Positions 5,030 through 32,154 of a stretch of 64,000 nucleotides of DNA are shown here, in pieces (positions within the stretch are counted from its first letter, which is position 1; the number at the start of each line of letters is the position of its first letter). The position numbers and the translations under genes are program-made. The DNA lies in contig JBBTZT010000003.1 in assembly GCA_038061225.1 (NCBI GenBank), positions 257,515 to 321,514 of the forward strand. Reading direction: 5' to 3'. The notes beneath the pieces were generated by a model. The model was not told the DNA's origin. It did no database searches and saw only the letters and a program-made list of their open reading frames with translations. Source of the stretch: Patescibacteria group bacterium (GTDB lineage Bacteria; Patescibacteriota; Microgenomatia; UBA8517).

Positions 5030-5115
5030 AACATGAATTACTTTAAATTAATATAGAACTCATGTCAATTCTATAAAAAACATTTCAAAAGTGGTATTAT
5101 TACTCTAATATACTG

Positions 5116-14216: not shown

Positions 14217-14228
14217 TAAAATATCTTC

Positions 14229-15056: not shown

Positions 15057-15078
15057 TTAAAAATGGTATTATAAAAAC

Positions 15079-15780
15079 ATGTCATTGCTACCGTTTATAA
15101 AAGATGATGATTTTATATCAGAGGTAAAAAAAGTTTTAGAGGTGGATAAAAATGATTCAAGAAAAAACAAGTCAATAAGAAATTCTATAGACCCTTTTTC
15201 AGCAATATTTGATGCATCAATTCAAAGCATCCCGATTAATTTGTGGTTTGAACTTGAGGCTAGAAGACAATCTCAAAAAACCCTTCAAAATAAACTTGGA
15301 TTATTTCATCAGAATATATTAGGCCATGTAAGAGGGTGGATCAACTTAAATACTGGAAAGGTAGTTGATTTACTAAACACCAAAAAGAAGGTAATTGCTG
15401 AAGTTAAAAACAAATTTAACACAACTAAAGGTTCAGATAAAGTTCAAATTTATGATAACATCAAATTTTTATTAGATACAAAATACAAAGGATATGTTGG
15501 TTACTATGTTGAAGTGATACCACAAAATAAGAAAATGTACGATTCTGAATTTACTCCATCAGATAATAAGATCAAAAAAAGAAGACCAAGAAACAAAAAT
15601 ATTAGAATCATAGACGGATCCAGTTTCTATGACTTAGCTACAGGATATAATGACTCATTGTTTATGTTGTATATGGCAATACCAGAAGCTATTACAAAGA
15701 TATTAAAAATTCCTGTAATGAATATTCTAGGCAAGAACGAAATGCTAGAACTTTATAAAGAGGTATATCAAACAAAGTAA
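15079..15780 (+). CDS. putative Type II restriction endonuclease (PD-(D/E)XK-like)
   Basis: 233-aa ORF immediately upstream of a C5-MTase gene. Candidate catalytic motif VVDLL-x9-AEVKNK (D...ExK). No database match could be run. Confidence 0.45.
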   Translation: MSLLPFIKDDDFISEVKKVLEVDKNDSRKNKSIRNSIDPFSAIFDASIQSIPINLWFELEARRQSQKTLQNKLGLFHQNILGHVRGWINLNTGKVVDLLNTKKKVIAEVKNKFNTTKGSDKVQIYDNIKFLLDTKYKGYVGYYVEVIPQNKKMYDSEFTPSDNKIKKRRPRNKNIRIIDGSSFYDLATGYNDSLFMLYMAIPEAITKILKIPVMNILGKNEMLELYKEVYQTK

Positions 15781-15818
15781 CCATTGCATAATGTATTGGT
15801 TATTGATATATTTTATTC

Positions 15819-17114: not shown

Positions 17115-17169
17115 AACAAGATATTTATGTCCTAAATTAATTATTTATATAATAATTTCCTTAGTATAA

Positions 17170-17395
17170 TTTGAGGACTTGGGCTCACAGCAACAGTATT
17201 GTCTGGATGTGGACATAATATTGGTCTAAGGGTGGTACCTGAGTGATGATTCCTGCCGATAATATTTTGGTGTTTTCTATTGGCTTGTCCAAGTCTCCAC
17301 GGCTGACAGATAATTCCCTCTGAAGATATTGTTTTTGCGGCACAGATGGTACACGCTGGATTTGTAGCATTTATTCTGTCTGGCATTTACTTATT
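17170..17395 (+). ncRNA. candidate structured ncRNA, possibly a reduced RNase P RNA (rnpB)
   Basis: A roughly 230-nt GC-rich segment in an AT-rich intergenic context, next to tRNA-Thr. It has blocks resembling RNase P conserved regions: GAGGACUUGGGCUCACAG (cf. GAGGAAAGUCCGGGCUCCAUAG), CUAAGGGUG (cf. GUAAGGGUG), and ACAGAUGG...CGCUGGAUUU (cf. ACAGAACCCGGCUUAU). The only ORF (81 aa, minus strand) has odd composition. Confidence 0.3.
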
Positions 17396-17510
17396 AAAGA
17401 TCATTATTAAATTTAATTCAATCCTATATTTAAATAAAATAAGATGTTAAGATTAGAATTGCGTCTCAGAAGAAATTAAGGATTAGATTGTACTATTTTC
17501 CATAATTTTG

Positions 17511-17581
17511 AGCTGGTGAGTGTAATCGAAACACTGTCGATGGTTTACGATACCACTGCTCTACCACTGAGCTACACCAGC
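17511..17581 (-). tRNA. tRNA-Thr (anticodon CGU)
   Basis: The reverse complement reads GCTGGTGTAGCTCAGTGGTAGAGCAGTGGTATCGTAAACCATCGACAGTGTTTCGATTACACTCACCAGC. Anticodon loop ATCGTAA; T-loop TTCGATT. Confidence 0.85.
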
Positions 17582-17597
17582 ATGAAGCAATTATATA

Positions 17598-18269
17598 TTA
17601 ATATCCAATGAATTTCTCTGTTCTAACATGATCTTCAGGTATTCTGAATTTTTCTAAAATATCTTCCATAGCATTGACAAAAGGTGGAGGACCAACAACC
17701 CAGAAAACAGAAGATATAGAGTGATCAGATATATAGTGATTAAGCGAATTTTTATCAAGATGACCTGAAACTGAGGTATCAATATAATCAATTTTTATAA
17801 AATTATTTTCTTTTTTCCACTTATCTAAATCTTTTTTGAATACAAACTCATTATCTGAATTTGAATAAATTAAATAAATATCTTTTTTTATTTTATTATC
17901 AATTATATTTTTAATCATTGCCCTAAATGGAGTAATTCCAATTCCACCAGCTATAAAGCAATTAATAGTTAATAATGAAGAATTAATAATTGGAAAGACA
18001 AAACTACCAAATGGTCCTCTGGCTTTTATAGTTGATCCAATTTGTAGTTTATTTAACAGCTTTTTAAATTTAGACTCTTTTCTAATTCTTGTAGTAACTT
18101 GAATAAATTTTTCGGTGGGAGATGAAGCAATTGTAAATTGTTTAGTAATTCCATCTAGTGTTAAATACAAATATTGCCCTGCTTGCCACGAGAGTTTTTC
18201 GTTTGCTGTAAAGAAAAAAGATTTTGTATCTTTAGCTTCATCCATCTTCTTGACAAGAGTTAGTTTCAT
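17598..18269 (-). CDS. FAD/NAD(P)-binding oxidoreductase, ferredoxin-NADP reductase family
   Basis: KQFTIASSP (RxYS-type FAD motif) and GGIGITPF (NAD-binding glycine motif). Confidence 0.6.
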   Translation of the reverse strand: MKLTLVKKMDEAKDTKSFFFTANEKLSWQAGQYLYLTLDGITKQFTIASSPTEKFIQVTTRIRKESKFKKLLNKLQIGSTIKARGPFGSFVFPIINSSLLTINCFIAGGIGITPFRAMIKNIIDNKIKKDIYLIYSNSDNEFVFKKDLDKWKKENNFIKIDYIDTSVSGHLDKNSLNHYISDHSISSVFWVVGPPPFVNAMEDILEKFRIPEDHVRTEKFIGY

Positions 18270-18325
18270 TAATATGATGATAGCATATGTGTTATAACTG
18301 TGGTTGTGATATTCCAGACGATAAT

Positions 18326-18460
18326 ATGGGTAAATCTGATGCTAAAGGAGCTTCTTTAACTGACGCTTCGTTTGAAAGTATGGCAAAGGAGTGGAGCATG
18401 ACAGTTGAGGAAACAAAGAAAAATGTATATAAACTTTTAAGAAAACAATTAGAGAAGTAA
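18326..18460 (+). CDS. possible small ORF (44 aa), below the ORF-track cutoff
   Basis: ATG at 18326 to TAA at 18458, encoding MGKSDAKGASLTDASFESMAKEWSMTVEETKKNVYKLLRKQLEK. No motif. Confidence 0.2.
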   Translation: MGKSDAKGASLTDASFESMAKEWSMTVEETKKNVYKLLRKQLEK

Positions 18461-18553
18461 CTATTTATCCTCTTTTTTAATCAAATTTTTATTTGGCCAA
18501 ACGATGTATAATAGTCTTATGCTGAATTTCATATAATATAATTATACACTAAA

Positions 18554-19585
18554 ATGTCAAACGTAATAAAATGCAAGAATTGTGGAACTGAAATAGATGT
18601 TGGAGAGCAATTGGCTCATGATATTAAAGAATCTGTTGTTCTTGAGGAAAGAAAAAAAGCACAAGAAGAAGTAGATATTGTACGACGAAAGTTCAATACT
18701 GATATGGGCAAGCTTCTTGACGAAATTAAAACTTTGCGTGAGAAAGATCAAATGAGAGATTTGGAAATGAAGAAAAAACTTCTAGAAAGTGAGGAAACAA
18801 TTAAAAATGATTTAAAAATTAAACTTGAAGATGAACATAGATTAAAAGATTTGGAAAATTATAAGAAAATGCAAGATGTTTTGAAAGCTAATGAAGAATT
18901 AAAAAGAAAATTAGAACAAGGATCACAACAAACACAAGGTGAAGTATTAGAACTAACTATAGAGAAAAAATTACGTCAGGATTATCCACAAGATGAAATA
19001 AAAGAAGTTAAAAAGGGAGTAAAAGGAGCTGATGTTATCCAAATTGTTATTGATAAAAAAGGGCAAAAATGTGGAAGCTTACTTTGGGAATCAAAAAATG
19101 CTAAGTGGAGTGAAACATGGATAACAAAACTTAAAGAAGATCAAAGACAGGCCAAGGCAGACCTAGCTATACTTGTCTCAGTTGATTTGCCAGAAGACAT
19201 TAAAGAAAAAGGAATTGGTTATAAAAACGGTATTTGGATATGTGGTGCAACTAATTTTAATCAACTGGCAATGTCTTTAAGATTTAATTTAGTTAATATT
19301 TACTATGAAAAACAAAACGCTGTAGGAGTAGATGAGAAAATGAAAGTACTATATGAGTATTTAACAGGAAATGAATTTAAACATAGAGTAGAGGGAATTG
19401 TGGAAGCTTTTGGAACACTTCAGGACGACATCGAAAGAGAAAAAAGGTGGTTTAGTGCAAAATGGGCAAGACAAGAAAAAGAAATTAGAAAAGTAATTGA
19501 TCATACACATGGAATGTATGGTGATCTTCAAGGTGTTACAGGTAGGGCACTTCCTGAAATAAAATCATTGGAATTAGAAGAATAA
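18554..19585 (+). CDS. DUF2130-like protein: N-terminal CxxC, long coiled coil, C-terminal restriction-endonuclease-like (PD-(D/E)XK-like) domain
   Basis: CKNCGTEI at the N-terminus; an E/K-rich heptad region about 100 aa long; C-terminal GADVIQIV...LLWESKNAKWS (D...ExK-like). Assigned to DUF2130 from memory of the family architecture. Confidence 0.45.
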   Translation: MSNVIKCKNCGTEIDVGEQLAHDIKESVVLEERKKAQEEVDIVRRKFNTDMGKLLDEIKTLREKDQMRDLEMKKKLLESEETIKNDLKIKLEDEHRLKDLENYKKMQDVLKANEELKRKLEQGSQQTQGEVLELTIEKKLRQDYPQDEIKEVKKGVKGADVIQIVIDKKGQKCGSLLWESKNAKWSETWITKLKEDQRQAKADLAILVSVDLPEDIKEKGIGYKNGIWICGATNFNQLAMSLRFNLVNIYYEKQNAVGVDEKMKVLYEYLTGNEFKHRVEGIVEAFGTLQDDIEREKRWFSAKWARQEKEIRKVIDHTHGMYGDLQGVTGRALPEIKSLELEE

Positions 19586-19627
19586 ACAACCTCTTGACTT
19601 CGGTTTTGATTGGGGTTAAATTAAATT

Positions 19628-20624
19628 ATGACAACTTCTAAAATTAAAATTCAAAATAATACTTTCAAAGAAGTGATGATTTACCAGACTCCAGACAAGA
19701 GTGTAAAAGTCGAGATTTATTTAAAGGATGAAAATTTATGGCTAACTCAGATTAGAATAGCTGAATTGTTTGGCGTTGAAAGAAGTGTTGTCACAAAGCA
19801 TTTAAAGAATATTTTTTATGAACGAGAGTTAGATTTAAAAAGCAATGTGCAAAAAATGCACATTGCTAAGTCTGATAAACCAGTTAAATACTATAATCTT
19901 AATGTAATTATTGCTGTTGGGTATAGAATCAACTCAATTAAGGCCACAAAATTTCGTATTTGGGCTACTCAAGTTTTAAAGGAATACATAGGACGATGAA
20001 AGATTAAAAGATCCTGATCAAATATTTGGTAAGGATTACTTTGAAGAGCAGCTCGCGAGAATCAGAAATATCCGTTCAAGCGAGAGAAGGATGTATCAAA
20101 AGATTACTGATATCTATGCAGAATGCAGTGCCGACTATGATCCAAATAGTGATATGACCAAAGACTTTTTTGCTACAGTTCAGAATAAACTGCATTTTGC
20201 TATTACTGGTCAAACCGCCGCAGAAATTATAGCTAAGAGAATTGGTAATAAAAAGTTAAATATGGGATTAACAAATTGGAAAAATGGACCAAAAGGCAAA
20301 ATTAGAGAAACTGATGTGGTAATTGCAAAGAATTATTTAAATGAAATAGAGCTGGATAAATTAAACAGAATTGTAACTGTTTACTTAGATTATGCAGATA
20401 TGATGGCAAAAGATAGGATTGTTATATATATGGAAGATTGGATCAAGAAACTGGATGCTTTTCTTAAATTTAGTGAGAAGGACATACTTTCAGATAATGG
20501 AAAAGTAAGTTATGAAGTTGCAGAACAATTGGCATTGGGAGAATATAAAAAGTTTAGAATTAAACAAGACAAAAATTATATCTCAGATTTTGATAGAGAA
20601 GTTAAAAAACTTTTAAAAAAATAG
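19628..20624 (+). pseudogene. rhuM: rhuM-family (virulence RhuM) gene disrupted by a frameshifting deletion
   Basis: ORF 19628-19999 carries the RhuM N-terminal part (...QIRIAELFGVERSVVTKHLKNIF...). ORF 20091-20624 carries the C-terminal part (YQKITDIYA...). The +1-frame translation of the gap (DDERLKDPDQIFGKDYFEEQLARIRNIRSSERR) is also RhuM. About 14 nt encoding IKGFVL appear to be missing at about 19990. Confidence 0.75.
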
Positions 20625-21064
20625 CAAAAACTAGAACTGGGATTCGAAAACTTGTTCTGTCTTATAACTCCTAACTTTAAGAATTTGAAGTGTTGGGTCA
20701 GTAACTTTATAGTCCGAGTTTTCTGCAACAAACAACCCGATTCCAATGTGCGGAATATAACCCAAATCTTTTCTGAAAAATGGAGCCAATATACCAGTAT
20801 AAAGCTTATCGTGAAGGGCAATCACAATGATCCCAAGATTTATCTAATCCTAGTAAATGAATTTTAAAAGACCTCTCATCTTTAACTTAATTATCGGTTT
20901 ATGTAAGTTTCTACTAATTTAGCCTTGAAGTTTCCTAATTCCTCATAATAGGTCACTTTTACCCCTTATTTACCTTCTTTTAACTATTGTTAACTAAGCA
21001 TTTTAGCTGTACAATTATGCATAATAGGAATTATCTAAAAGTAATACTTTTTTGACGACCAAAA

Positions 21065-21259
21065 ATGCCAAAAGACGATAAAAGGTTGCCGGAACTATTA
21101 ACCATTGCGCAGGTGGCGAAAATTCTTAATGTCCACCCGACTACGCTTAGGCGGTGGGATAAGAAAGGAAAGTTAAAAGCCATTCGTGTAGGCACGAGAC
21201 GCGGTGTTGGCGAAAGACGCTATCACCGAGAGGATATTATAAAGTTAATAACAAAGTAA
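21065..21259 (+). CDS. excisionase-family HTH DNA-binding protein (Xis/AlpA-like)
   Basis: LLTIAQVAKILNVHPTTLRRWDKKGKLKAIRVGTRRGVGERRYHREDI matches the excisionase-family HTH consensus. Confidence 0.75.
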   Translation: MPKDDKRLPELLTIAQVAKILNVHPTTLRRWDKKGKLKAIRVGTRRGVGERRYHREDIIKLITK

Positions 21260-21263
21260 ATTT

Positions 21264-24200
21264 ATGTATACGCCGAATAAATCAATTATTGATAATGATA
21301 AAATTAAGCTCTTTACAGAGTTAAAGAACATTCTTAATGACCAGCCTAGCAACTTTGACGTAGCTACCGGCTATTTTAATGTTGGAGGCTTCGAGTTAGT
21401 CGCCCAAGAAATAAAAAATGTCAAAAAGTTCAGATTATTACTTGGAAAGTCACCAAGTGTTGATGACAAGTTGGTACCGGATTTATTCGAGCCAGTAGCG
21501 TTTTATAAGACCAATCTTAAAGAAGACCTCGAAAACGAAGAATTTACCTCTAAAAAGTCTCAGGCGGTCAAAAACCTCATAGCTTTTCTTGAAAAGCAGG
21601 ATGTTGAAGTTAAACTACTGGAAAAACCCTTTCTTCATGGCAAGGCTTACATTTTTAATGATCTGGCTATCATTGGCTCTAGCAACTTCACTTATTCGGG
21701 ACTTGCCGGCAATACAGAATTAAACGCAGTGCTCATTGATCCGCACCCCGTTTATCTTAAAAAAGAATGGTTTGATAAGTTTTGGGAGCAAGCCCGCGAT
21801 TTTAAGCAAGAGCTTATTGAAATCCTCAAAAGCTCAAAGTTAGGTACAAGGGAATACTCGCCTTACGAAGTTTATATTAAAGCGCTCTATGAACTTCAAA
21901 AGAAAGAGCTGGAACCTACGGAAGCCCCCAGAAACGAGCGTTTGCCCGAAAGCGTAGTAGATTTAGCAACATTTCAAGAAGACGCGGTTAATCGTGTGTA
22001 CTCATCGCTCACCAACTATAATGGCGTCTTAGTTGCTGATTCTGTCGGTCTTGGTAAAACATGGATTGCAAAAAAAGTCATTGAGGACTTTGGTTTTTAT
22101 AGAAGACGTAAGTTCTTGGTTATATGTCCAGCTTCACTTCACCGAATGTGGCAAGCTGAGCTTAAAGACTTGGGTGTTTCAGAAAATATCATCCATCAAG
22201 AGTATTTAGGAGGAGAAGGCTTGGACTTTGAAGATTTAGAGAAACGCCATCAGATAAAGTTTGCCGATATCTCCCTCATTGTAATTGACGAGTCTCACAA
22301 CTTCAGAAATCCCATATCTAACCGCTATGAAAACCTTTTTTCACTTATAGAAAAAATTCGCTCATTCGGTAAAACCCCAAAGGTAATTTTAATGACTGCA
22401 ACTCCAATGAATAACACTATTTGGGACTTTTACTTTCAACTTATGCTTATTGGTCAAAACAATAAGCGCATGTTTATTAAGCAAGGAATTTTTGACTTGC
22501 AAAAAGAGTTTAGCAAAGCCCAGAAAGGAAATACCAACCACATTAACGATGTTTTGCAATCAATCTCCATTCGTAGAACACGCCAATATATTAGAGAAAA
22601 CTACAAAGATGCAAAATTCAAAACAGAGACAGGGGAATACAAAAAGATTGAATTCCCAGATAGAAAACTGGAAGAAGTACACTATTCTCTTGATAAAGCC
22701 TATGATGGCCTCTATGCCGAGATTTCGCGCAAGATAGAAGCCGATTTGACTCTTGCTTACTACAAACTCTCCGAGTACAAAGTATCCGAGAAAAAAGATT
22801 TAGTAGAAGTCCACAGAGGACAGGCTTTAGCCGGTATCTTCCAAACAGTTCTTCTAAAAAGATTGGAAAGTTCAGTCGAGGCATTTCGCAAAAGCGTTAA
22901 AAGCCACAAAGAGTTCTTGGGTGAATTTAAAAATGTTGTCCAGAAAGGGAAAATACTACGCAAAAAGTTCTTCCTAAAATACATAAACAGTTTAGATGAA
23001 TCAATCGAGGATATAGATGGCTTGGGAGACTTTGGTAATAGCTTGGAAGATATAGACCTTAAAGACTACGACAAAGAGAAGATGTTTGCTGATATTGACC
23101 AAGATATTAAGGTTTTTTCAACTATTTATGAAGATATAAAAAATATAGATGAAAGCCAAGATGCAAAACTTATTAAATTTAAGGAACATTTACTCAAAAA
23201 TCTTAAAGAGGAAAAAGCCGTTATCTTCTCCTACTACTCCGACACTGTTAAGTATGTCGCTCAAGCATTAGATAAAGATGAGGATTTTAAGAAAAAGTAT
23301 GGTAAGAAGATAGCTTTCATTACTGGTGCTAATTCTTCAAACGAGCGCCAGACTATTATTGAAGATTTCTTAAACGGCAAGACAAATGTTGTTATTTCAA
23401 CCGATATTCTCTCCGAAGGTCAAAACTTGCAACAAGCAAAAACAGTTACTAATTACGATTTACATTGGAATCCGGTGAGAATGATTCAAAGAGCGGGAAG
23501 AATTGACCGTATTGGTACCCCTTTCAAAGAAATTATTATCTATAACTTTTACCCAGAGGATGAGTTGGAATCGCTCCTTGATCTAGTAGAAACCTTACAG
23601 AAAAAAATTATGATGATTAACGATACCATTGGTCTTGACGCCTCTGTTTTAGGTGAGCAGATAAACCCTAAAGTATTTGGTATTATACGGGACTTAAAAA
23701 GTGAGGAAGAAGAAACGAAAGATAAGACAATGGAACTTTTGGAAGCCGAGCAGTTCGGAGGCGGAGAACTTTTCTTCCAGCCCCTGAAAAACTTTGGACT
23801 GGATAAACTCCCCGCGTTTGCCGATGGTTTGCCTCACGGAATACAAAGTGGACTAAAGAAGGGTTATAGAGGCATTTTCTTTTATTTCCAGTATGCAGAG
23901 GAGTATCACTTCTGGTACCTGTACGATTTAATTGACAAAGAATTTAAAACCAACAAGACAGAAATTTTAGACTTTATAGCCTGCAAGCAAGTTGAGCGTC
24001 GAGTTGTCCCCGAAGATTACGATGTTTATTCAGCTCACGATGAAGTAAAAAATCGTATTGCAGAGCTTTTTAATGAAACAAGGTTTGAGGTTGAAATGCG
24101 TACTCCCTCCGGTAAGAAAGAAAAGTTTTTAATTGATATGCGGGATGAATTGGAACATATAAAAACAGAGGTTTTGTTTGAAGAAGATCAAAAGGAGAGA

Positions 24201-24431
24201 ACAAAAATAGAAGAAATTGTTACTAAGATAAACGAGGTCAACTTTACTAAAAAGCGTTTGCAGTATTTAAGGCGTTCTTGGCAGGCTTACAAAAAATCAC
24301 ATCAGAACTGGCGAAAACTGGTTGCAGAGCTTGGTGACTTTTTAGCGGACAAGGTTGAAACACCAACAGAAATTATTGAGGAATTTAATGACAAGAAACT
24401 CAAACTTATTTGCGTTGATTATATTTCATGA
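21264..24431 (+). CDS. fusion of an N-terminal PLD-family (HKD) nuclease domain and an SNF2-family helicase
   Basis: PLD motif FLHGKAYIFNDLAIIGSSNFT (HxK..D..GSxN). SNF2 motifs LVADSVGLGKTW (I), VIDESHNFRN (II), LMTATPMNN (III), ISTDILSEGQNLQ (V) and NPVRMIQRAGRIDRIG (VI). Confidence 0.85.
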   Translation: MYTPNKSIIDNDKIKLFTELKNILNDQPSNFDVATGYFNVGGFELVAQEIKNVKKFRLLLGKSPSVDDKLVPDLFEPVAFYKTNLKEDLENEEFTSKKSQAVKNLIAFLEKQDVEVKLLEKPFLHGKAYIFNDLAIIGSSNFTYSGLAGNTELNAVLIDPHPVYLKKEWFDKFWEQARDFKQELIEILKSSKLGTREYSPYEVYIKALYELQKKELEPTEAPRNERLPESVVDLATFQEDAVNRVYSSLTNYNGVLVADSVGLGKTWIAKKVIEDFGFYRRRKFLVICPASLHRMWQAELKDLGVSENIIHQEYLGGEGLDFEDLEKRHQIKFADISLIVIDESHNFRNPISNRYENLFSLIEKIRSFGKTPKVILMTATPMNNTIWDFYFQLMLIGQNNKRMFIKQGIFDLQKEFSKAQKGNTNHINDVLQSISIRRTRQYIRENYKDAKFKTETGEYKKIEFPDRKLEEVHYSLDKAYDGLYAEISRKIEADLTLAYYKLSEYKVSEKKDLVEVHRGQALAGIFQTVLLKRLESSVEAFRKSVKSHKEFLGEFKNVVQKGKILRKKFFLKYINSLDESIEDIDGLGDFGNSLEDIDLKDYDKEKMFADIDQDIKVFSTIYEDIKNIDESQDAKLIKFKEHLLKNLKEEKAVIFSYYSDTVKYVAQALDKDEDFKKKYGKKIAFITGANSSNERQTIIEDFLNGKTNVVISTDILSEGQNLQQAKTVTNYDLHWNPVRMIQRAGRIDRIGTPFKEIIIYNFYPEDELESLLDLVETLQKKIMMINDTIGLDASVLGEQINPKVFGIIRDLKSEEEETKDKTMELLEAEQFGGGELFFQPLKNFGLDKLPAFADGLPHGIQSGLKKGYRGIFFYFQYAEEYHFWYLYDLIDKEFKTNKTEILDFIACKQVERRVVPEDYDVYSAHDEVKNRIAELFNETRFEVEMRTPSGKKEKFLIDMRDELEHIKTEVLFEEDQKERTKIEEIVTKINEVNFTKKRLQYLRRSWQAYKKSHQNWRKLVAELGDFLADKVETPTEIIEEFNDKKLKLICVDYIS

Positions 24432-24434
24432 GTT

Positions 24435-27400
24435 ATGGGAACAAATATAGACTTAGACGAATTTTTGCCAACAATGGATGCACCGGACAAGGTGTATCAA
24501 CTTTTCGAATCTCTTGGTTTTAAGGTACTCGATTCTCACCTCAAGACAAACCCGTCAGTTTATAACTTACCGGTCAAAGAAGCCGCATTAGTTGAGAAGA
24601 TTTATGCAGTCTCAAATTATGACCGCCGTTTTCAGATTCTTTTATTTAAACTCAAAGAGGAAAACAAAGAAGCAATCCGTACAATACCGGAGAAAATTTT
24701 ACGCGAGGTAGACTTCCCTTTCATTATCTTTACCCCAGATTTTAAGACTTACACTTTTACTCTTGTTGAAAAAGTCCGTGAGGGACCCGGAGAGTTCAAA
24801 CGCAAACTCACAAAACTTGTAGTTGATAGCAGTCAGCCCTATCACACGGACAAAGAAATACTAGGAAGCCTTGCGCTATCTGTTGATACCAAAAACCCCG
24901 TTGAGGTTTATAAAATGTTTCAAAGCGCTTTTAGCGTTGAGAAAGTCACTAAGAAATTCTTTACCGAATATCGGGAAGTTTTTGAAAGATTAGTAGGAGA
25001 AGTTACTAAGCAGAATAAGCACCTGAAATTTACGCTTTTTTCCAGAGATGCTTCTGTAGAAAACTTTGTCAAAATACTTTTAGGTCGTTTAATGTTTCTC
25101 TACTTTATACAAAAGAGGGGCTGGCTTAACTGCTTTGATGGTTGGGGTAGCGGAGATAAAAAGTTTCTCTATAATAAATTTCAAGAGGCAAAGAAAGAAA
25201 AGAAAAACTATTTTAAGGATTACCTCGAACCGCTTTTCTTTGACACTCTCAACAATCCCCGCCGCGATAAGCCAGATCAAGCAACACAGTTTGGCGGTAG
25301 AATCCCTTTCCTAAACGGAGGACTATTTGAACCAGAGTACGACTATCAAGATGTAAGAAATCACATACTTTTAGAAAACTCCACCTTTGATGATGTTTTC
25401 TCGGTTTTTGAGAAATATAACTTTACTGTTAAAGAGGATGAGCCGCTTGAAAAAGAAGTAGCCATTGACCCTGAAATGTTGGGTAAGGTTTTTGAAAATC
25501 TCTTGGAGGAAAACTTACGTAAAGGCAAGGGCACGTATTACACCCCTCGAGAAATCGTCCACTACATGTGCCATGAAAGCCTTATAAACTATCTGGCTTC
25601 CGAAGTTAGCCTAGATCAAGATGTGATAAGGAATTTCTTGGATCGTGAGCAGTCCCTAGAAAAGAAGGAAACTTTAAGTTCTGCTATAAGAGAGAAAGCA
25701 AAGGAAATAGACGAAAAATTAGCTGATATTAAGGTTTTAGACCCTGCCTGCGGTTCTGGCGCTTTCTTGGTTGGTATGCTCCACGAAGTTATAAATGCCC
25801 GCCTAAGTCTTAATCGGGAGCTTGGGCGCAGTCTCTCGGAGTATGAAGTTAAAAAAGCAACAATTCAAAATAATATCTATGGTGTAGATATTGACCCCGG
25901 AGCTTCTGAAATTGCCAAACTTCGTTTATGGTTGACACTTGTTGTTGACCACAATCTCTCCGAAATAGAACCGCTCCCTAATCTTGACTATAAAATTATG
26001 GTCGGTAATTCACTACTCGATGAATTTATGGGCGTAAAACTCTTTAATCCCGAGAACGCAAAAGCTCAAGCAAATGGTAAGAAAATGATTAGTCTTTTTG
26101 ACGAAGATTCACAAGTTTCACTCTTTGAAAATGATGATAAAAAAACAAGTGTCCTAAAAGCCTTGCAAGGGCTACATGCTTTATATTTCAAAGAGTCTGA
26201 CCCCGAAAAGAAGAAGCAAATTAGAACTCAAATAGACAAGATTGAGTTTGATCTTATCGAGGCAACTGTTAATGATGAAGTATCACAACTGGAAAGAAAA
26301 ACTAAAGGAATTGTTGAACCGTATTTGTCTCATGGTATAGGAATTCCAGCGAAAGAAGCGGAGAGAATTTCAAAACTAAGTTCTCAACAAGGACAGATTT
26401 TAGAAACTTTTAATGAGATAAAGAAAAGTAATGTTAAACCATTTTTCTTGTTTCAACTCCATTTCTCCGATGTTTTTGAAAAGAAAGGCGGGTTTGATAT
26501 TGTTATCGCAAACCCACCTTATATGAAAGAGAGAGATAATAAAAAGGTTTTTGAAATAGTCAATAATTCTAGTTTTGGTAAAAAGTATCATCAAGGGAAA
26601 ATGGATTACTGGTATTATTTCTTGCATAAAGCTATTGATATCACAAAAGATAACGGGTTCATCTCCTATATAACGTCTCGGTACTGGATAAATAGTTATG
26701 GTGCAAAAAAACTTATTGAAAGAGTTAATAAAGAGTTATCTTTTGTAAACTTCGTTGATATTGGTAAGTTGAAGGTATTTGATGAAGTAGCTGGCTACCA
26801 TATGATTGCTGTTTATAAAAAGACAGTAGATATTGATCTGTTTACTTATAAAAAACTTCAAAACGAAATTAGTGATATAAGTAAAAGTTCTAATACTGAA
26901 AACCTAGAAATAAAAACATTATCAAAGAAGGAAATATTTACTGATAATGACGAGATTATTTTGGAAACCGATGGTTTAAAATATGATAATGTTGTTTTAT
27001 TAGGTTCAATCGCAGATACCTCGGTTGGAGTTCAAGAATCCCCTGACAAAATTAATAGTAAGCTCCTTCTAAGTGCAAAGCGAACAGATATATCTGTTGG
27101 TGATGGTGTTTTTGTTTTATCGCAAAAAGAATTAGATAACCTACGGCTAAAAGAGATTGGCCGACTGCCAATAATTAAAAAATATTTAGACCCTAATGAT
27201 GTGTACCGTTATCGAGTTAGTTGGAAAAGTAAGTATCTCATTTATTCTGACAATAAAATTAAGGAGGACATTAAAAGTAACAAGGAATACATTAGTATCA
27301 AGAATCATTTAGACAAATTTAGAGAATTTATTTCCTCTTCAAACAAGCCTTACGGGTTACATAGATCACGCGACATAAAGTATTTTATAGAACCCAAGAT

Positions 27401-27827
27401 TATATTTAAAAATATGTTTATCATGCCCGATTTTACCTACGATGATAAAGGATACTTTTTTGGATTTTCTTTTTCTTCAATAATTCAAAAAGATAAAACT
27501 TTTGACTTGAAATACATTCTAGGTATTTTAAATTCAAAAGTTGCATTTAATTGGTTCCAAAAGAACGGAAAAAGAAGGGGTGCTGGGTTTGATATTGGTG
27601 TTGAAAAACTAAGGCTTTTTCCGATCAAGAAAATTACGCTCCAAGAACAAAAACCAATTATCGAAATTGTCGACAAACTTCTAGATATCACAAAAGATGG
27701 TGATTATTTACAAAACCCCACAAGGCAAACTCAAGTTAAAGACTACGAAAAGCAAATTGACCAGTTAGTTTATAAACTCTATGGCCTAACGCCGGAGGAA
27801 ATTTTAGTTGTGGAGGATCAAAAATGA
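24435..27827 (+). CDS. large gamma-class N6-adenine DNA methyltransferase with a C-terminal TRD-like region (type IIG/Eco57I-like, PglX/DrmMI-like)
   Basis: Motif I VLDPACGSGAFLVGM followed by motif IV VIANPPYMKE (gamma order). N-terminal helical region with ILLGRLMFLYFIQKRGWL. C-terminal YKLYGLTPEEILVVE, typical of the type IIG/PglX family. 1130 aa. Confidence 0.85.
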   Translation: MGTNIDLDEFLPTMDAPDKVYQLFESLGFKVLDSHLKTNPSVYNLPVKEAALVEKIYAVSNYDRRFQILLFKLKEENKEAIRTIPEKILREVDFPFIIFTPDFKTYTFTLVEKVREGPGEFKRKLTKLVVDSSQPYHTDKEILGSLALSVDTKNPVEVYKMFQSAFSVEKVTKKFFTEYREVFERLVGEVTKQNKHLKFTLFSRDASVENFVKILLGRLMFLYFIQKRGWLNCFDGWGSGDKKFLYNKFQEAKKEKKNYFKDYLEPLFFDTLNNPRRDKPDQATQFGGRIPFLNGGLFEPEYDYQDVRNHILLENSTFDDVFSVFEKYNFTVKEDEPLEKEVAIDPEMLGKVFENLLEENLRKGKGTYYTPREIVHYMCHESLINYLASEVSLDQDVIRNFLDREQSLEKKETLSSAIREKAKEIDEKLADIKVLDPACGSGAFLVGMLHEVINARLSLNRELGRSLSEYEVKKATIQNNIYGVDIDPGASEIAKLRLWLTLVVDHNLSEIEPLPNLDYKIMVGNSLLDEFMGVKLFNPENAKAQANGKKMISLFDEDSQVSLFENDDKKTSVLKALQGLHALYFKESDPEKKKQIRTQIDKIEFDLIEATVNDEVSQLERKTKGIVEPYLSHGIGIPAKEAERISKLSSQQGQILETFNEIKKSNVKPFFLFQLHFSDVFEKKGGFDIVIANPPYMKERDNKKVFEIVNNSSFGKKYHQGKMDYWYYFLHKAIDITKDNGFISYITSRYWINSYGAKKLIERVNKELSFVNFVDIGKLKVFDEVAGYHMIAVYKKTVDIDLFTYKKLQNEISDISKSSNTENLEIKTLSKKEIFTDNDEIILETDGLKYDNVVLLGSIADTSVGVQESPDKINSKLLLSAKRTDISVGDGVFVLSQKELDNLRLKEIGRLPIIKKYLDPNDVYRYRVSWKSKYLIYSDNKIKEDIKSNKEYISIKNHLDKFREFISSSNKPYGLHRSRDIKYFIEPKIIFKNMFIMPDFTYDDKGYFFGFSFSSIIQKDKTFDLKYILGILNSKVAFNWFQKNGKRRGAGFDIGVEKLRLFPIKKITLQEQKPIIEIVDKLLDITKDGDYLQNPTRQTQVKDYEKQIDQLVYKLYGLTPEEILVVEDQK

Positions 27828-28855
27828 AAGCAGCAGAAAAACCAAAATATGTTCAAGAAGCACGGAAGTTACTAACTTCAATTGACATTAACCATTTGAT
27901 TTCAAACCCTAATGACCTCAGGGAAATAGACAAAATTAATCGTCTAGTAGCTATTTTTACTAACTTTTCTTCCAATGATGGTCAAGAATTGAAAAGACTC
28001 TTTCAAGAATTTCAAGAGACAGGAAGACGTAGTACTAGTTCGGGAACTATCAAAAATAGAGCCGTAGATGTAATCCAATTTATTGGCCAGAAGATTGAAG
28101 AAATGGATATTTATGTTATAGAACCTGATGAGAAACCACTATTAGAGACGCTGGAAAAATTAAGAAAAATTCAAAAACTAATTCAGGAAGGTTTAGCTCG
28201 GAGTGATGAAAAAACACAAATTATACGGGAGGCTCAAGAAAAATCTAAGTTGTTTAAGGACGATATCTACAAAAGGAAAGCGGAAAAGCTTTCAAAACAG
28301 ACCGTTTGGTCAAAGCAGAGTCATGATGGTTTCGTGGCCGCAGATGAATATGGCCAATTAACTCCTTGGATAGAATTGCTTGAAGATTATTTGGGAGAAG
28401 AAAAGCTCTTAATAAGAGAAAAGGTTATTGAAGATACAACCCCGTATGAAGGAAGAAAATTTCTGAGGTCTATCTTAGAGAAGGCTAACAATGAAGTGGT
28501 TGTGGTTGATAATTTTCTTTCCCACGAGATTTTGGCAATTATTGAACCATATGTATTAAAGGGGGTAGGCTTTAGGTTACTGACACGACAGGCGCACAAT
28601 AGTAAATTTAGGAGTTTTACAGCTGATTATAAAGTCTTTAGACTTCAGCACCAAAATAAAATAGCCGCCAAGGAAAACAAAAAATGCCATGACCGCTTTG
28701 TGATGGTTGATGGTCATATCATATATCATTTCGGAGCCAGCTTAGTTGAATTGGGAAATACCTTATCTGTGGCTCATTTAATTGAAGATCAAAAAGAGAA
28801 AGATAAACTGTTATCTAAATTTACCGATTGGTGGGATACGGGAAAGGACGTTTAA
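27824..28855 (+). CDS. hypothetical protein with a C-terminal degenerate PLD-like (HxRxxxxD...GAS) domain
   Basis: C-terminal HDRFVMVDGHIIYHFGASLVELGN aligns with HxKx4Dx6GSxN but has K->R. Preceded by VVVVDNFLSHEILAIIE. The N-terminal 200 aa are helical and unknown. Its start overlaps the MTase stop by 4 nt. Confidence 0.45.
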   Translation: MKAAEKPKYVQEARKLLTSIDINHLISNPNDLREIDKINRLVAIFTNFSSNDGQELKRLFQEFQETGRRSTSSGTIKNRAVDVIQFIGQKIEEMDIYVIEPDEKPLLETLEKLRKIQKLIQEGLARSDEKTQIIREAQEKSKLFKDDIYKRKAEKLSKQTVWSKQSHDGFVAADEYGQLTPWIELLEDYLGEEKLLIREKVIEDTTPYEGRKFLRSILEKANNEVVVVDNFLSHEILAIIEPYVLKGVGFRLLTRQAHNSKFRSFTADYKVFRLQHQNKIAAKENKKCHDRFVMVDGHIIYHFGASLVELGNTLSVAHLIEDQKEKDKLLSKFTDWWDTGKDV

Positions 28856-28867
28856 GTTTTAATAATC

Positions 28868-30313
28868 ATGGATATTACAGATATCACTGGCTATACATTA
28901 AAAAATCTTAGCAAAATTAACATTGTTTTAGGGAAAAATGGTTGCGGTAAAAGCACACTGTTACGATCAGTTGAACAAGGTTTATCTTCGCAATCGCAGT
29001 CGTATGGAAAAACAAAATACATAACACCGGAAAGAGGAGGATCTCTTATTTATGAAGCTGGTATTGAACAGAGTTTAACAACCGATATAAATTGGCTTTC
29101 AGGTCAAAGGAGAAAAAATCAAGCTGTTGGTTTTAGACAACAAAGCGTAGCTCAGTATCGCAGACTTGAAACTTTGGTATTAAGAGAAATAGAAAAGGAA
29201 AAACGACAACAAAACGATTACACCTTCGACATTTATGTTAATAAAATCAACTCTTTGCTTGACAATATTGAAATAAAAAGACATGATATGACTTTCAAAA
29301 TATACCATAGAGGAACAATCAATGAATTAGGGGCAGAAGTAATCAGCAGTGGCGAAAGCGAACTGATTTCCTTGGGTATTGAATGTTTAATTTTTGGCAA
29401 AGAGTGTATTCCGGACAAAGAAAATATTTTATTTTTAGATGAGCCAGACGTACATTTACACCCAGATTTACAGGTTCGTTTAATGAATTTCCTAGAAGGT
29501 TTGGTTTCGGATAGTAACTTCAAAGTTTTAATTGCCACACACAGTACTGCTATTTTGGGAGCGTTGGAAACTTACACTGATACTCACTTGGCGTTTATGT
29601 CCTTTGAGCAGAAAGAGCTAAACTTTAGAGAAATTTCAGCAGTTTATAGAAAAGTTCTGCCCGTTTTTGGAGCACACCCCTTGTCTAATATTTTCAACGA
29701 AGCACCAATCTTACTTGTTGAAGGTGAGGATGACGAAAGAATTTGGCAACAAGCTGTCCGATCTTCTAATGGCACTATTAAATTATATCCCTGTTCTGTA
29801 GATAGTGTGAGTAATATAAACGATTTTGAACAGGAAGCAAAAGAGATTATTCAATCTGTTTATGACAAAGCCAAAGGTTATTCATTGAGAGATAAGGACA
29901 ATAACACTGAAGAAATCAATGATCTGCCGCCGATAATCAGAATGAGACTAGCATGCAGAAACTCGGAAAACCTTTTGCTTACGGACGAGGTACTTGGAGC
30001 ACTTAATATAACATGGGATCAACTTAAAGAGCGTATTGATATTTGGTTGAGTACCAATACACAACATCCTCACTTTTCGGTTATGAATGGGTTTAAGGAA
30101 GGCGGATACGATAGAAGAAACTTTGATATTAAAGAAGTGCGTAACGATTTAATGGGTGTTGTTGGAAGCGCAAAACCTTGGGAAGTTGTAGTGGGTCAAT
30201 CAATTTCAAGTCTGACTTGGGATGACAGTTCTAATTTTGAGGAAGATGGAAAAATTCTATCCTTTCTTGGACGAAAGATTACAGAAAATCTTATCCCTAA
30301 ATCGAGTAGATGA
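28868..30313 (+). CDS. OLD-family ATP-dependent endonuclease (AAA_21/ABC-type ATPase + TOPRIM)
   Basis: Walker A GKNGCGKSTLL; signature-like ISSGESEL; Walker B ILFLDEPDVHLHPD; TOPRIM-like ILLVEGEDDERIW with downstream acidic residues (VDSVSN). Confidence 0.75.
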   Translation: MDITDITGYTLKNLSKINIVLGKNGCGKSTLLRSVEQGLSSQSQSYGKTKYITPERGGSLIYEAGIEQSLTTDINWLSGQRRKNQAVGFRQQSVAQYRRLETLVLREIEKEKRQQNDYTFDIYVNKINSLLDNIEIKRHDMTFKIYHRGTINELGAEVISSGESELISLGIECLIFGKECIPDKENILFLDEPDVHLHPDLQVRLMNFLEGLVSDSNFKVLIATHSTAILGALETYTDTHLAFMSFEQKELNFREISAVYRKVLPVFGAHPLSNIFNEAPILLVEGEDDERIWQQAVRSSNGTIKLYPCSVDSVSNINDFEQEAKEIIQSVYDKAKGYSLRDKDNNTEEINDLPPIIRMRLACRNSENLLLTDEVLGALNITWDQLKERIDIWLSTNTQHPHFSVMNGFKEGGYDRRNFDIKEVRNDLMGVVGSAKPWEVVVGQSISSLTWDDSSNFEEDGKILSFLGRKITENLIPKSSR

Positions 30314-30358
30314 CATAAGGTTAAAGTAAAAGGGTTAAGGTTATTAACAAATTAGTAA

Positions 30359-31006
30359 ATGAATAACTTATTTATTTTCCAGTTACCTATAGATTTAGCC
30401 TCATCACTTACTGGAGGTGCTATTGGGTTAATATTAGCTTTTGGACTTTACCTTTTTGATAAGTCAATTAACCCCGACCTAGAAATACAGATAGCCGATC
30501 CGTCAAAACTATCATTGGCTCAAGGTGAATTTAAGTCTCTAAATTTAAAAATAATTAACAAAAAGAGAGACGGCATTTTACGATTTTTGAATAGATCAGC
30601 AACTCAAGTTAAGGTATTTCTTTACTTTTCAGACTTTTCTTCAAGAGTGCTTATGAATACAGTGATAGCTAGGTGGAACAATAGTCGAGAACCGCTAACT
30701 CCGGATTATAAAAATGTTGATCTTGGACTTGCTCTTACACACCCTAGAGAGGTTCTCGTACCTGGTGATGAAAATGAAATCTCTGTGGCTATTCGGAAAA
30801 AAGATAATAGATACTGCTTCCCTTTCAGCAACGAAAGCTACATATATCAAAGTAAAGACTTTGAGGTTCCTGGTTGGAAAATTGAAGATGATAAATTTGT
30901 CGTTACTGTGCGCATACAGTCAGCTGAAGTTGATAAAATGGGTGGCGTGTTTATTGTGCTAAATAAAAGTACATTAGAGCAGTTTAAGATCGAAAAAATA
31001 GGATAA
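30359..31006 (+). CDS. hypothetical membrane-anchored protein (single N-terminal TM)
   Basis: 215 aa; TM at about 17-33 (LTGGAIGLILAFGLYLF); no motif. Lies 45 bp downstream of the OLD-family gene. Confidence 0.4.
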   Translation: MNNLFIFQLPIDLASSLTGGAIGLILAFGLYLFDKSINPDLEIQIADPSKLSLAQGEFKSLNLKIINKKRDGILRFLNRSATQVKVFLYFSDFSSRVLMNTVIARWNNSREPLTPDYKNVDLGLALTHPREVLVPGDENEISVAIRKKDNRYCFPFSNESYIYQSKDFEVPGWKIEDDKFVVTVRIQSAEVDKMGGVFIVLNKSTLEQFKIEKIG

Positions 31007-31041
31007 TACTTTGGGATTATAAATTTTTGAATCATATTTAA

Positions 31042-31302
31042 ATGAAACGAATTGATGCATACGCACTCGCTAGATTTCTTATATTAGTTGCCTTGCTTAT
31101 TGGTGTCATCTATACGGGTTCTAAAATTGACACTCTTAGCAAGCGACTAGAAAGAATTGAGGCAAAACTTGGTGGTCCCGAAAAAATCGGTTGTAATGAG
31201 AAGGATTCTATCGAGAAAGTTCGCCAGTCTGTTGTCCGGATTGTAGGCGGAGAGGGCGAAGGTTCTGGTTTATCACCGTATGGAGCAGTGGACCGGATTT
31301 GA
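31042..31302 (+). CDS. small membrane protein; possible N-terminal remnant of a trypsin-like (HtrA-type) protease
   Basis: TM helix, then ...VRQSVVRIVGGEGEGSGL, resembling the start of an S1C protease domain. The ORF's last ~22 nt (including its stop codon) overlap the tRNA-Gly 3' end. Confidence 0.3.
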   Translation: MKRIDAYALARFLILVALLIGVIYTGSKIDTLSKRLERIEAKLGGPEKIGCNEKDSIEKVRQSVVRIVGGEGEGSGLSPYGAVDRI

Positions 31303-31355
31303 ACCGGCGACCTTCTGCTTGGGAAGCAGACATTCTACCGCTGAACTACCACTGC
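31281..31355 (-). tRNA. tRNA-Gly (anticodon CCC), CCA encoded
   Basis: The reverse complement reads GCAGTGGTAGTTCAGCGGTAGAATGTCTGCTTCCCAAGCAGAAGGTCGCCGGTTCAAATCCGGTCCACTGCTCCA. Confidence 0.85.
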
Positions 31356-31393
31356 GAATCTAGCAGCAGGGGATTTCAGAGGCCAAGCTTTGC

Positions 31394-31416
31394 TTATCGC
31401 TGAACTACCACTGCTG
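31394..31416. repeat. partial direct repeat of the tRNA-Gly 5' end (17 nt identical: GCAGTGGTAGTTCAGCG), about 40 bp upstream of the tRNA
   Basis: cgctgaactaccactgc occurs at 31339-31355 (in the tRNA) and again at 31397-31413. Confidence 0.6.
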
Positions 31417-31441
31417 GTAAATTCAGTTTAGTATATACCTC

Positions 31442-31885
31442 TTATCTAGGTAAAACCAATATATTTCCAGAGTGGATTATACTTGGGTTTAGCATGTTGT
31501 TTGCGTTTGCAATTTCTACCCATTTATAACCATCTCCATAAGCTCTAACAGCTATATCCCAAAGATTATCACCTTTAACAACTTCATATGTTGCTGTTGT
31601 TATGCTATCAACATTTGGAATAGTTAATTCTTGTCCTACTTCAATAATACTGGCATTGTCTAACTTGTTTTCAGTTGCAATTTCTACCCATTTAAACCCA
31701 TCACCATAATAAGTAACAGCAATGTTCCAAAGATTATCACCTTTAACAACTGTGTGAACTTTAGTTGAGATCTCAGTTGAATTTGAACCATTTAATAATT
31801 CTTGTGGAATTGTACCCCTGTCTGTTTTTAAGTATTTAACTACTAAAACACCAACAATAACTATGACAAAAAAACCTAAGACCAT
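31442..31885 (-). CDS. LysM domain protein (2 LysM repeats, N-terminal TM)
   Basis: Two copies of the pattern YxVVKGDNLWxIAVxxYGDGxKWVEIAxxN...I.xGxxLxxP. Confidence 0.8.
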   Translation of the reverse strand: MVLGFFVIVIVGVLVVKYLKTDRGTIPQELLNGSNSTEISTKVHTVVKGDNLWNIAVTYYGDGFKWVEIATENKLDNASIIEVGQELTIPNVDSITTATYEVVKGDNLWDIAVRAYGDGYKWVEIANANNMLNPSIIHSGNILVLPR

Positions 31886-32077: not shown

Positions 32078-32154
32078 GGGGTCGTAGCTCAATTGGTTAG
32101 AGCGCTTCCCTGTCACGGAAGAGGTTGCGAGTTCGAGTCTCGTCGATCCCGCCA
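32078..32154 (+). tRNA. tRNA-Asp (anticodon GUC), CCA encoded
   Basis: GGGGTCGTAGCTCAATTGGTTAGAGCGCTTCCCTGTCACGGAAGAGGTTGCGAGTTCGAGTCTCGTCGATCCCGCCA. Confidence 0.85.

Follow-up and report, generated by a model that had tools for sequence, protein, structure and literature searches.

A decayed insertion of defence-type genes on the 3′ side of tRNA-Gly(CCC) in a groundwater Woesebacteria-like genome

A cluster of defence-type genes stands between tRNA-Thr(CGU) and tRNA-Gly(CCC) in a groundwater Woesebacteria-like genome (Patescibacteria, candidate phyla radiation), and the locus raises the question of where this DNA begins and ends and how it came to lie beside a tRNA gene. In this study, the locus was analysed within a 64-kb stretch of the genome, hereafter the window. 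The original prediction had taken the two tRNA genes as the flanks of an old, now immobilised integrative element, or of decay at a tRNA-adjacent recombination hot spot. Comparison with related lineages showed that the insertion occupies positions 19576-31440 (11.9 kb), that foreign DNA was inserted directly on the 3′ side of tRNA-Gly(CCC), and that tRNA-Thr is not a boundary. Decayed foreign DNA at a tRNA hot spot was thus confirmed, whereas attachment (att) sites and the edges of an integrase island were not. The segment is probably a composite, decayed and now immobile defence island that was built stepwise at a hot spot 3′ of tRNA-Gly(CCC).

The comparison loci (L004, L006, L008 and so on) are contigs of about 10 related lineages reached through homologues of PolX and DUF2130; further contigs of the same population came from the Hainich wells. 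tRNA genes were called with ARAGORN and Rfam, which agreed on tRNA-Thr, tRNA-Gly and tRNA-Asp of the window, so that the two flanking tRNA genes named before do exist. Proteins were scanned against the Pfam, NCBIfam, PADLOC and PHROGs libraries, and breakpoints were set by blastn of the window against six relatives. The features that define the boundaries are as follows.

17510-17581, minus strand: tRNA-Thr(CGU), a backbone gene (ARAGORN, Rfam)
17598-18269, minus strand: FAD/NAD-binding oxidoreductase, conserved backbone (Pfam)
about 18326-18460, plus strand: small conserved open reading frame (ORF), conserved backbone
18554-19585, plus strand: DUF2130, conserved backbone (Pfam)
19576-19627, no strand: left breakpoint of the insertion, with no tRNA-derived repeat (blastn against six relatives)
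31281-31355, minus strand: tRNA-Gly(CCC) with encoded CCA, a strongly divergent allele (ARAGORN, Rfam)
31356-31414, minus strand: leader with an apparently vestigial partial tRNA-Gly copy (20-nucleotide (nt) copy and 39-nt spacer)
31442-31885, minus strand: LysM protein, backbone (Pfam scan, blastn)

The backbone order in relatives is tRNA-Thr, oxidoreductase, DUF2130, tRNA-Gly(CCC) and LysM. The oxidoreductase gene next to tRNA-Thr and the small ORF keep their order and orientation in L004, L006, L008, L014 and L032, and the arrangement DUF2130 (plus strand), tRNA-Gly(CCC) (minus strand) and LysM (minus strand) was found in seven lineages (L004, L006, L008, L011, L014, L016 and L032). In these seven the site is empty, the DUF2130 stop lying 0-20 nt from the tRNA-Gly(CCC) 3′ end. 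Similarity to relatives in blastn stops at 19575, within the final DUF2130 codons, and restarts at 31441, the LysM stop; 11,865 bp of the window stand where L006 has 123 bp, and the insert begins 8 nt or less from the tRNA-Gly 3′ end. The search for an empty site that had been proposed was therefore successful, and an eighth lineage, L031, has 1.7 kb of other inserted DNA (GHL15, YgaP-like) at the exact DUF2130/tRNA-Gly position.

The window tRNA-Thr shares 99% identity with its L004 counterpart and 90% with that of L006, and the DUF2130 protein is 94% identical to the L006 copy. Because relatives keep them in the same order, the oxidoreductase and DUF2130 genes are backbone and should not be annotated as island cargo. 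A DUF2130 gene is present as predicted, but its role as cargo was not upheld, nor was that of tRNA-Thr as an island edge, the 2.0 kb from tRNA-Thr to 19575 being conserved backbone. That relatives hold both genes in the same context without a compositional shift is an outcome named beforehand as counting against an integrative element, and it applies to this part of the segment.

The island appears to be fixed in the population, as indicated by the uniformity of its contigs. The right-hand part (ATPase gene, 215-amino-acid (aa) protein gene and Trypsin_2 fragment, described below) has an identical arrangement in all 8 places listed, among 17 contigs from Hainich wells H41, H51 and H52 and other sequencing runs; tRNA-Gly, its spacer and its repeat are identical in every population contig that extends to the tRNA gene. 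An assembly chimera at the right junction was ruled out, since the junction recurs across many independent assemblies. The LysM gene contains an internal 108-nt repeat (31476-31583 and 31644-31751, 79% identity), in or near which several population contigs terminate and which may account for assembly breaks beside the island.

Nine features were assigned within the insertion.

19628-20624, plus strand: rhuM pseudogene (PF13310 on both pieces; three-frame translation; tblastn with the L014 rhuM)
20658-20886, minus strand: decayed 2H phosphoesterase fragment (2′-5′ RNA ligase superfamily, PF13563; 70-aa translation)
21065-21259, plus strand: small HTH_17/MerR protein of 64 aa with an excisionase-family helix-turn-helix (HTH) domain (Pfam, PADLOC, NCBIfam, PHROGs)
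21264-24431, plus strand: HKD/phospholipase D (PLD)-SNF2 helicase (Pfam PLDc_2, SNF2-rel_dom and Helicase_C; PADLOC)
24435-27827, plus strand: Eco57I/PglX-type N6-adenine DNA methyltransferase carrying a TaqI_C specificity domain (Pfam, PADLOC, NCBIfam)
27824-28855, plus strand: 343-aa accessory protein matching the PADLOC candidate PDC-S05, with weak PLD similarity (Pfam, PADLOC)
28868-30313, plus strand: 481-aa ABC-type ATPase (AAA_15/AAA_21), similar to AriA, OLD, PtuA and AbiEii
30359-31006, plus strand: 215-aa protein, the last intact island gene (no family match)
31042-31302, plus strand: truncated Trypsin_2 (PF13365) protease gene, an 86-aa ORF that continues into the tRNA

The cargo is decayed at three places. 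The rhuM gene is a pseudogene, as had been proposed, with a single +1 frameshift near 19990-19995; its nucleotide identity to L014 4023-4770 is 74.6% (blastn), about the same divergence as that of the backbone genes. On the minus strand next to it, a 70-aa stop-to-stop translation matched 52 cluster representatives (best E = 6.4e-19). Its main piece corresponds to residues about 89-144 of the approximately 186-aa PF13563 proteins, and residues 57-76 are matched by another piece in a different frame, so that the remnant, which covers about residues 57-144, carries a frameshift. The stretch 20630-21060, described before as non-coding, has no intact ORF but holds this decayed gene, and the remnant on its minus strand is an internal rather than an N-terminal one. 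No Rfam match was found in the 20.6-21.1 kb stretch or in the tRNA-Gly leader. The third decayed gene, Trypsin_2, is cut at the tRNA: only about 78 N-terminal residues are kept, and homology stops at GSG (about 31273), 8 nt short of the tRNA 3′ end, where relatives go on with FAIKDGG. No family was found for the intact 215-aa protein in Pfam, NCBIfam, PADLOC or PHROGs. In agreement with the original prediction, the same four libraries gave no integrase, recombinase or transposase among the island ORFs or the approximately 50 ORFs of the window.

Composition was compared with 10-kb backbone windows, in which the guanine-plus-cytosine (GC) content is 0.322 ± 0.008 with a maximum of 0.335. The region 21065-31280 has a GC content of about 0.36, above this maximum; the HTH gene at its left end (21065-21259) reaches 0.441, and the tetranucleotide deviation peaks at z = 4.3 over the helicase and methylase genes. 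The values of 17113-19575 (0.306), rhuM (0.304) and 20630-21064 (0.320) are backbone-like. The compositional shift is thus real, as had been judged by eye, but it begins at 21065 rather than at tRNA-Thr and is limited to part of the insertion.

Composition and homologues both point to a foreign origin of the GC-rich operon by horizontal acquisition. Helicase homologues in other Patescibacteria share 85-91% identity (89% for a Gottesmanbacteria genome), and those in Deltaproteobacteria, Caldisericia, Omnitrophica, Endomicrobia and one archaeon share 55-57%; plasmid-borne homologues are only 31-34% identical, and no relatives were found in IMG/VR. In L023, L025 and L026 the helicase and methylase genes are likewise co-linear, and this pair is all that the window shares with these loci at the nucleotide level, the accessory genes being different. 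In the Gottesmanbacteria block, genes for a Y1 transposase (IS200-like) and a serine recombinase stand at the start, about 0.9 kb downstream of tRNA-Pro, and the helicase gene follows about 2 kb beyond the serine recombinase gene. This proximity suggests that the helicase-methylase pair can ride recombinase-bearing elements. In the metagenome, the Gottesmanbacteria block (L023; L024 6608-7920) has two different left flanks, one of them after tRNA-Pro.

A sequence of three steps would account for these features. A small host-like module, comprising rhuM, Trypsin_2 and the 2H-phosphoesterase gene, would first have occupied the tRNA-Gly flank. The GC-richer operon of about 10 kb (21065-31006) would then have landed between rhuM and Trypsin_2. 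Finally, frameshifts and deletions would have inactivated rhuM and the phosphoesterase gene, cut Trypsin_2 at the tRNA and removed any former recombinase or att site. We infer the first two steps from L014 and L032, in which the 3′ flank of tRNA-Thr carries rhuM next to a full-length Trypsin_2 gene of 401 aa (both genes are absent there in L031); with such adjacency, the simplest reading is that the module came first and the operon entered between its genes later. In these two lineages, rhuM (also split in L014), the 401-aa Trypsin_2 and a 381-aa protein form a 3.4-kb module (L014 3774-7129, L032 1-1992). The 381-aa protein, which lies beside tRNA-Thr, was tested as a hidden integrase and gave no Pfam, PHROG or PDB-sequence match; it could be an unrecognised mobility protein.

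The insertion is not the only variable part of the locus, and the surrounding 20 kb are a plasticity hot spot. The following features belong to it.

15045-17112, plus strand: restriction-modification (R-M) cassette of 2,068 bp, a separate insertion left of tRNA-Thr
15079-15780, plus strand: Eco47II-like restriction endonuclease (Pfam, PADLOC)
15819-17114, plus strand: Dcm-type C5-methyltransferase with an N-terminal MerR/HTH (Pfam, PADLOC)
32078-32154, plus strand: tRNA-Asp (ARAGORN, Rfam)

An exact 16-nt direct repeat, AAAACAAGATATTTAT, stands on either side of the R-M cassette, at 15029-15044 and 17113-17128 (26/31 over 31 nt). The cassette is absent from L006, L004 and L008, and the repeat is single-copy in the L006 empty site, so the cassette looks like an insertion with target duplication. 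Gene content between LysM and PolX differs among all relatives. The alternative insert of L031 indicates that the DUF2130/tRNA-Gly site has been used repeatedly, and, like that of the window, the inserts found there in other lineages contain no recombinase. Clustered defence-type genes, at a locus whose cargo differs among relatives, are what is expected of a defence island or variable hot spot.

Several smaller differences were also observed. About 0.8 kb is missing between the small ORF and DUF2130 (window 18464-18542 against L006 2776-3592); in relatives it holds a DUF5671-like gene and a gene for 160-183 aa, and it represents another indel of the plastic region. A DUF7387/HicA toxin-antitoxin-like pair lies at about 34870-35302 of the window, between LemA and an M48 peptidase, and is found in L031 and not in L004 or L006. 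The tRNA-Asp(GTC) gene is intron-free in the window and L006, and its anticodon loop is split by a group I intron of about 190 nt in L004 (8918-9122), L008 (9070-9265), L014 (about 14190-14376) and L011 (about 4839-5035). Rfam Intron_gpI gave 81.7 and 72.6 bits for the interrupted genes, which ARAGORN missed. Outside the study region, the window carries housekeeping genes, namely those for FtsW, ParB, signal peptidase, IMPDH, polysaccharide synthesis, PolX, GatCAB, DnaE, L19, RuvC, enolase, LexA and UvrAB; the nearest named relatives of its PolX are Woesebacteria and other Microgenomates/Patescibacteria.

Several observations weigh against a stepwise origin. The order of events is drawn from only about 10 lineages, and the search for an almost identical strain whose site is empty yielded none, a PolX variant of 99% identity being present only on short contigs that end inside LysM. 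Past the start of the catalytic domain, no similarity could be detected between the Trypsin_2 fragment and the N-terminal part of the L014 protein, and because of this the link to a resident rhuM-Trypsin_2 module draws only on adjacency and family. The function of the operon is a prediction, and in its gene set the operon matches the full definition of none of the named systems compared. The tRNA-Gly allele is an outlier as well: the gene is hypervariable at this locus, and the window allele, with its acceptor stem GCAGTGG, and the L004 allele (7654-7725, with an unusual T arm) each reach only 64-72% identity with the tRNA-Gly of all other lineages. Among the closer relatives L004, L006, L008 and L014, tRNA-Thr is 85-99% identical, and tRNA-Asp of the window is 96% identical to that of L006. 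Set against these other tRNA genes, the low identity, seen also in L004, suggests that tRNA-Gly has been replaced or reshaped here more than once. The outlier fits replacement of the whole interval through recombination in the flanking genes equally well.

Such a replacement is possible, though not likely. The interval from the DUF2130 3′ end to the LysM stop, tRNA-Gly allele included, would have been imported whole from a Woesebacteria-like donor by DNA uptake and recombination in the conserved flanks, and a site-specific recombinase would never have been involved. Both breakpoints (19575 and 31441) indeed fall at the ends of conserved genes, identity of the flanks to L006 is mosaic (87% for DUF2130 versus 76% for the oxidoreductase region in blastn), and the divergent tRNA allele, the lack of att repeats and of a recombinase, and the recombinase-free inserts of other lineages are all as expected from this route. 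However, no donor was found with the tRNA allele of the window or with the island arrangement, the heterogeneous GC content inside the island (0.304 in rhuM and about 0.36 in the operon) points to more than one event, and the truncation of Trypsin_2 at the tRNA would still need a separate deletion. Stepwise assembly followed by decay is the reading retained here.

The repeat beside tRNA-Gly had been regarded as a possible trace of integration. The 17-mer CGCTGAACTACCACTGC occurs in exactly two copies, one at 31339-31355 (the tRNA 5′ end, read on the plus strand) and one at 31398-31414, so the exact copy reported before is real and its position had been given one base off (31397-31413). Identity extends to 19/20 over 31395-31414, which corresponds to tRNA positions 1-20 with 17 exact, and the copies are 42 nt apart when measured from the exact 17-mer or 39 nt from the 20-nt copy. 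Among 100 dinucleotide-preserving shuffles, none gave any repeat match at up to 2 mismatches. A search for further att-like repeats, which had been suggested, returned only this 17-mer. No copy of the tRNA 3′ end was found elsewhere in the window for either tRNA-Gly type (blastn-short, with tRNA-Thr searched too), the two junctions have no repeat of more than 10 nt in common (exact-word comparison, including the 20.6-21.1 kb stretch against the right end), and the 5′ 24-mer of the window tRNA-Gly has no match in IMG/VR.

The repeat lies upstream of tRNA-Gly, on the LysM side and away from the island. It was rejected as an att site of the island: an att of the 11.9-kb insert would be a copy of the tRNA 3′ end at about 19.6 kb, whereas the observed copy is of the 5′ end, lies on the far side of the tRNA, encloses 42 nt and has a counterpart in a lineage with no island. 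In an independent lineage, represented by L008 (5637-5688) and L009 (412-463), a 19/20 copy of the 5′ end of their own, different tRNA-Gly stands 31 nt upstream of the gene, and the intact tRNA-Gly abuts DUF2130. In this lineage as in the window, the single mismatch falls on the GG dinucleotide of the D-loop region (positions 17-18). L008 also has about 240 bp of additional DNA beside its copy, and L011, with a 97%-identical tRNA-Gly, has no such copy. In 423 kb of related sequence with 36 tRNA genes, 19/20 copies of a gene's own 5′ end were seen for these tRNA-Gly genes only; a weaker 17/20 match to the 5′ end was seen for one tRNA-Phe at the unrelated Gottesmanbacteria locus L024.

The repeat is more like what remains of an incomplete duplication of the tRNA-Gly 5′ end, a stump left between promoter and intact gene, than like an att remnant, which is also the second of the outcomes that had been named as speaking against an integrative origin. 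Immediately upstream of the repeat, the window can be aligned with the tRNA leaders of L004 and L006, including a TATAAT-like (-10-like) box, and for this reason the stump, relative to the LysM stop and this box, appears to occupy the position of the tRNA 5′ end in relatives. The spacer of the window gives a weak but colinear alignment to the tRNA 3′ half (positions about 37-72, 24/36, P about 0.08), which hints at an internally deleted tandem tRNA copy; the L008 spacer has no such signal. No tRNA was called in the leader by Rfam or ARAGORN. When tested for tandem duplication, the spacers showed no resemblance to their own upstream leaders (P = 0.36 and 0.82), and similarity between the spacers of the window and L008 was borderline (P about 0.05). 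In RNA folds of leader and tRNA, the stump pairs with the 3′ acceptor strand, a pairing that follows from sequence identity and was not used as evidence.

Two other origins of the repeats were considered. One, which appears unlikely, is that they arose through the same recombinase-independent insertion as the Eco47II cassette, nearly all of the inserted DNA having been deleted afterwards. The 16-nt (26/31) duplication around that cassette, single-copy in L006, has the signature described in PMC2853133, the tRNA repeats, at 17-20 nt, are about as long and were seen in two lineages, in each of which they copy the lineage's own tRNA, and the extra DNA by the L008 stump could be counted on this side. 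The difficulty is that only 31-42 nt lie between the copies, so that near-complete loss of the insert would be needed twice, and the alignment of the window spacer with the tRNA 3′ half favours an internally deleted tandem copy. Rather doubtful, too, is a broader proposal, in which the 5′ copy would be either the footprint of recurrent recombinase-independent insertion or gene replacement that makes 16-20-nt target duplications in Patescibacteria, a signature also seen around the neighbouring R-M cassette, or a selected leader element; as a leader element, the stump could compete with the true 5′ acceptor strand during tRNA maturation.

The small HTH protein had been described as Xis-like. It does carry an excisionase-type domain (TIGR01764, 36 bits against a cutoff of 28.8; PF12728, 49 bits) and matches phrog_66 and PHROG excisionase families, but it also matches BldC/MerR-type regulators and PADLOC mad1 (6.5e-16), and neither a cognate integrase nor att sites accompany it. 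Its gene ends 4 nt before the helicase gene and is GC-rich like the operon, and the same kind of HTH is fused to the N-terminus of the neighbouring Dcm methylase. In the study of the methylation-associated defence system (MADS), deletion of mad1 had little effect and mad1 was treated as a widespread regulator (10.1101/2023.03.30.534895). As the first gene of a defence operon, with a mad1 match and no integrase partner, the HTH gene more probably encodes an operon regulator than an Xis, and it should not be taken as a sign of an excisable element.

A classical integrase island that spans the two tRNA genes, in which the 17-nt repeat would be what is left of att and the HTH protein would be the excisionase, is very improbable. 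In its favour, the insertion does abut the tRNA 3′ end, an excisionase-family domain is present, Gottesmanbacteria have the helicase-methylase module close to a serine recombinase and tRNA-Pro, and the truncated gene by the tRNA is consistent with a lost int/att end. Against it, the 2 kb beside tRNA-Thr are conserved backbone, the repeat copies the wrong end of the tRNA outside the island and recurs in L008 with no island, neither a 3′-end repeat nor a recombinase was found in the window, and the HTH gene belongs to the defence operon.

The locus thus provides a base-pair-resolved case in which a streamlined, uncultivated bacterium of the candidate phyla radiation would have gained and then eroded defence genes at a tRNA-anchored hot spot with no resident recombinase. 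The pair of HKD-SNF2 helicase and PglX-like methylase appears to be widely exchanged between Patescibacteria lineages. These results add context to studies of horizontal transfer and immunity in Patescibacteria and leave the current picture unchanged.

From its domains, the operon is predicted to be a restriction-modification-like system. The PglX/Eco57I-type N6-adenine methylase would mark self DNA. The helicase, in which PLDc_2 (residues 56-174) is followed by SNF2 and Helicase_C (Pfam), is the predicted restriction effector and would translocate on and cut unmodified DNA. The small HTH protein would regulate the operon, and the PLD-like protein and the OLD/AbiEii-like ATPase would be accessory or back-up effectors.

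Type-2 BREX-related (BR) systems are defined by an N-terminal HKD, a Swi2/Snf2 helicase, an N6-methyltransferase, a DUF499 ATPase and DUF3780 (PMC12839542). The operon resembles them in its N-terminal HKD/PLD fused to a Swi2/Snf2 helicase (PADLOC HKD+Snf2, 1.2e-55) and the adjoining PglX-like N6-methyltransferase gene. It differs in that neither DUF499 nor DUF3780 was found by Pfam in the 343-, 481- and 215-aa proteins, the ATPase being of the AAA_15/AAA_21 type. Similarity to DISARM is seen in the DrmD-like helicase and a DrmMI-like match, but DrmA and DrmB (DUF1998) are absent, the NCBIfam DrmD score is 179 bits against a cutoff of 610, and the score of the NCBIfam phospholipase-D anti-phage family is far under its cutoff. 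The accessory proteins, namely the HTH protein, the PDC-S05-like protein and the ABC/OLD-type ATPase, also set the operon apart from BR and DISARM. In the MADS model, mad6, mad7 and mad8 are mandatory (10.1101/2023.03.30.534895); apart from the mad1 match of the HTH protein, the methylase and ATPase gave weak matches to mad2 and mad3 in PADLOC, and mad6-8 were not detected among its matches, which were to mad1-3 only. In Hma, the Snf2 helicase carries a PD-(D/E)XK nuclease at its C-terminus and is accompanied by an m5C methyltransferase and an ATPase (PMC8565338, PMC11232893), whereas the predicted nuclease of the operon is an N-terminal PLD domain and its methylase is of the N6-adenine type.

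The insertions can likewise be set beside known modes of gene acquisition. R-M gene complexes have been reported to insert with long target duplication, the criterion being more than 30 bp (Furuta et al. 2010, PMC2853133). The R-M cassette left of tRNA-Thr is like these in having restriction and modification genes, a flanking repeat that is single-copy at the empty site and no mobility gene; it is unlike them in its short duplication (16 nt exact, 26/31), at or below the 30-bp criterion. With integrase-type tRNA islands, the insertion shares a foreign block at a tRNA 3′ end, a site that is empty in relatives, deviant composition and an excisionase-family HTH; it differs in having no recombinase and no distal tRNA 3′ repeat and in being, as we read it, composite as well as pseudogenised. 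Genomic islands, including one that carries R-M genes, have been reported in aquifer Patescibacteria (PMC12455944), in a main text that mentions neither tRNA nor integrase. The island described here is like them in its clustered defence modules, its cargo that varies at one locus and its absent mobility genes, and it goes beyond them in that the empty site, the exact breakpoints and a stepwise decay are resolved, within a hot spot that lies around three tRNA genes.

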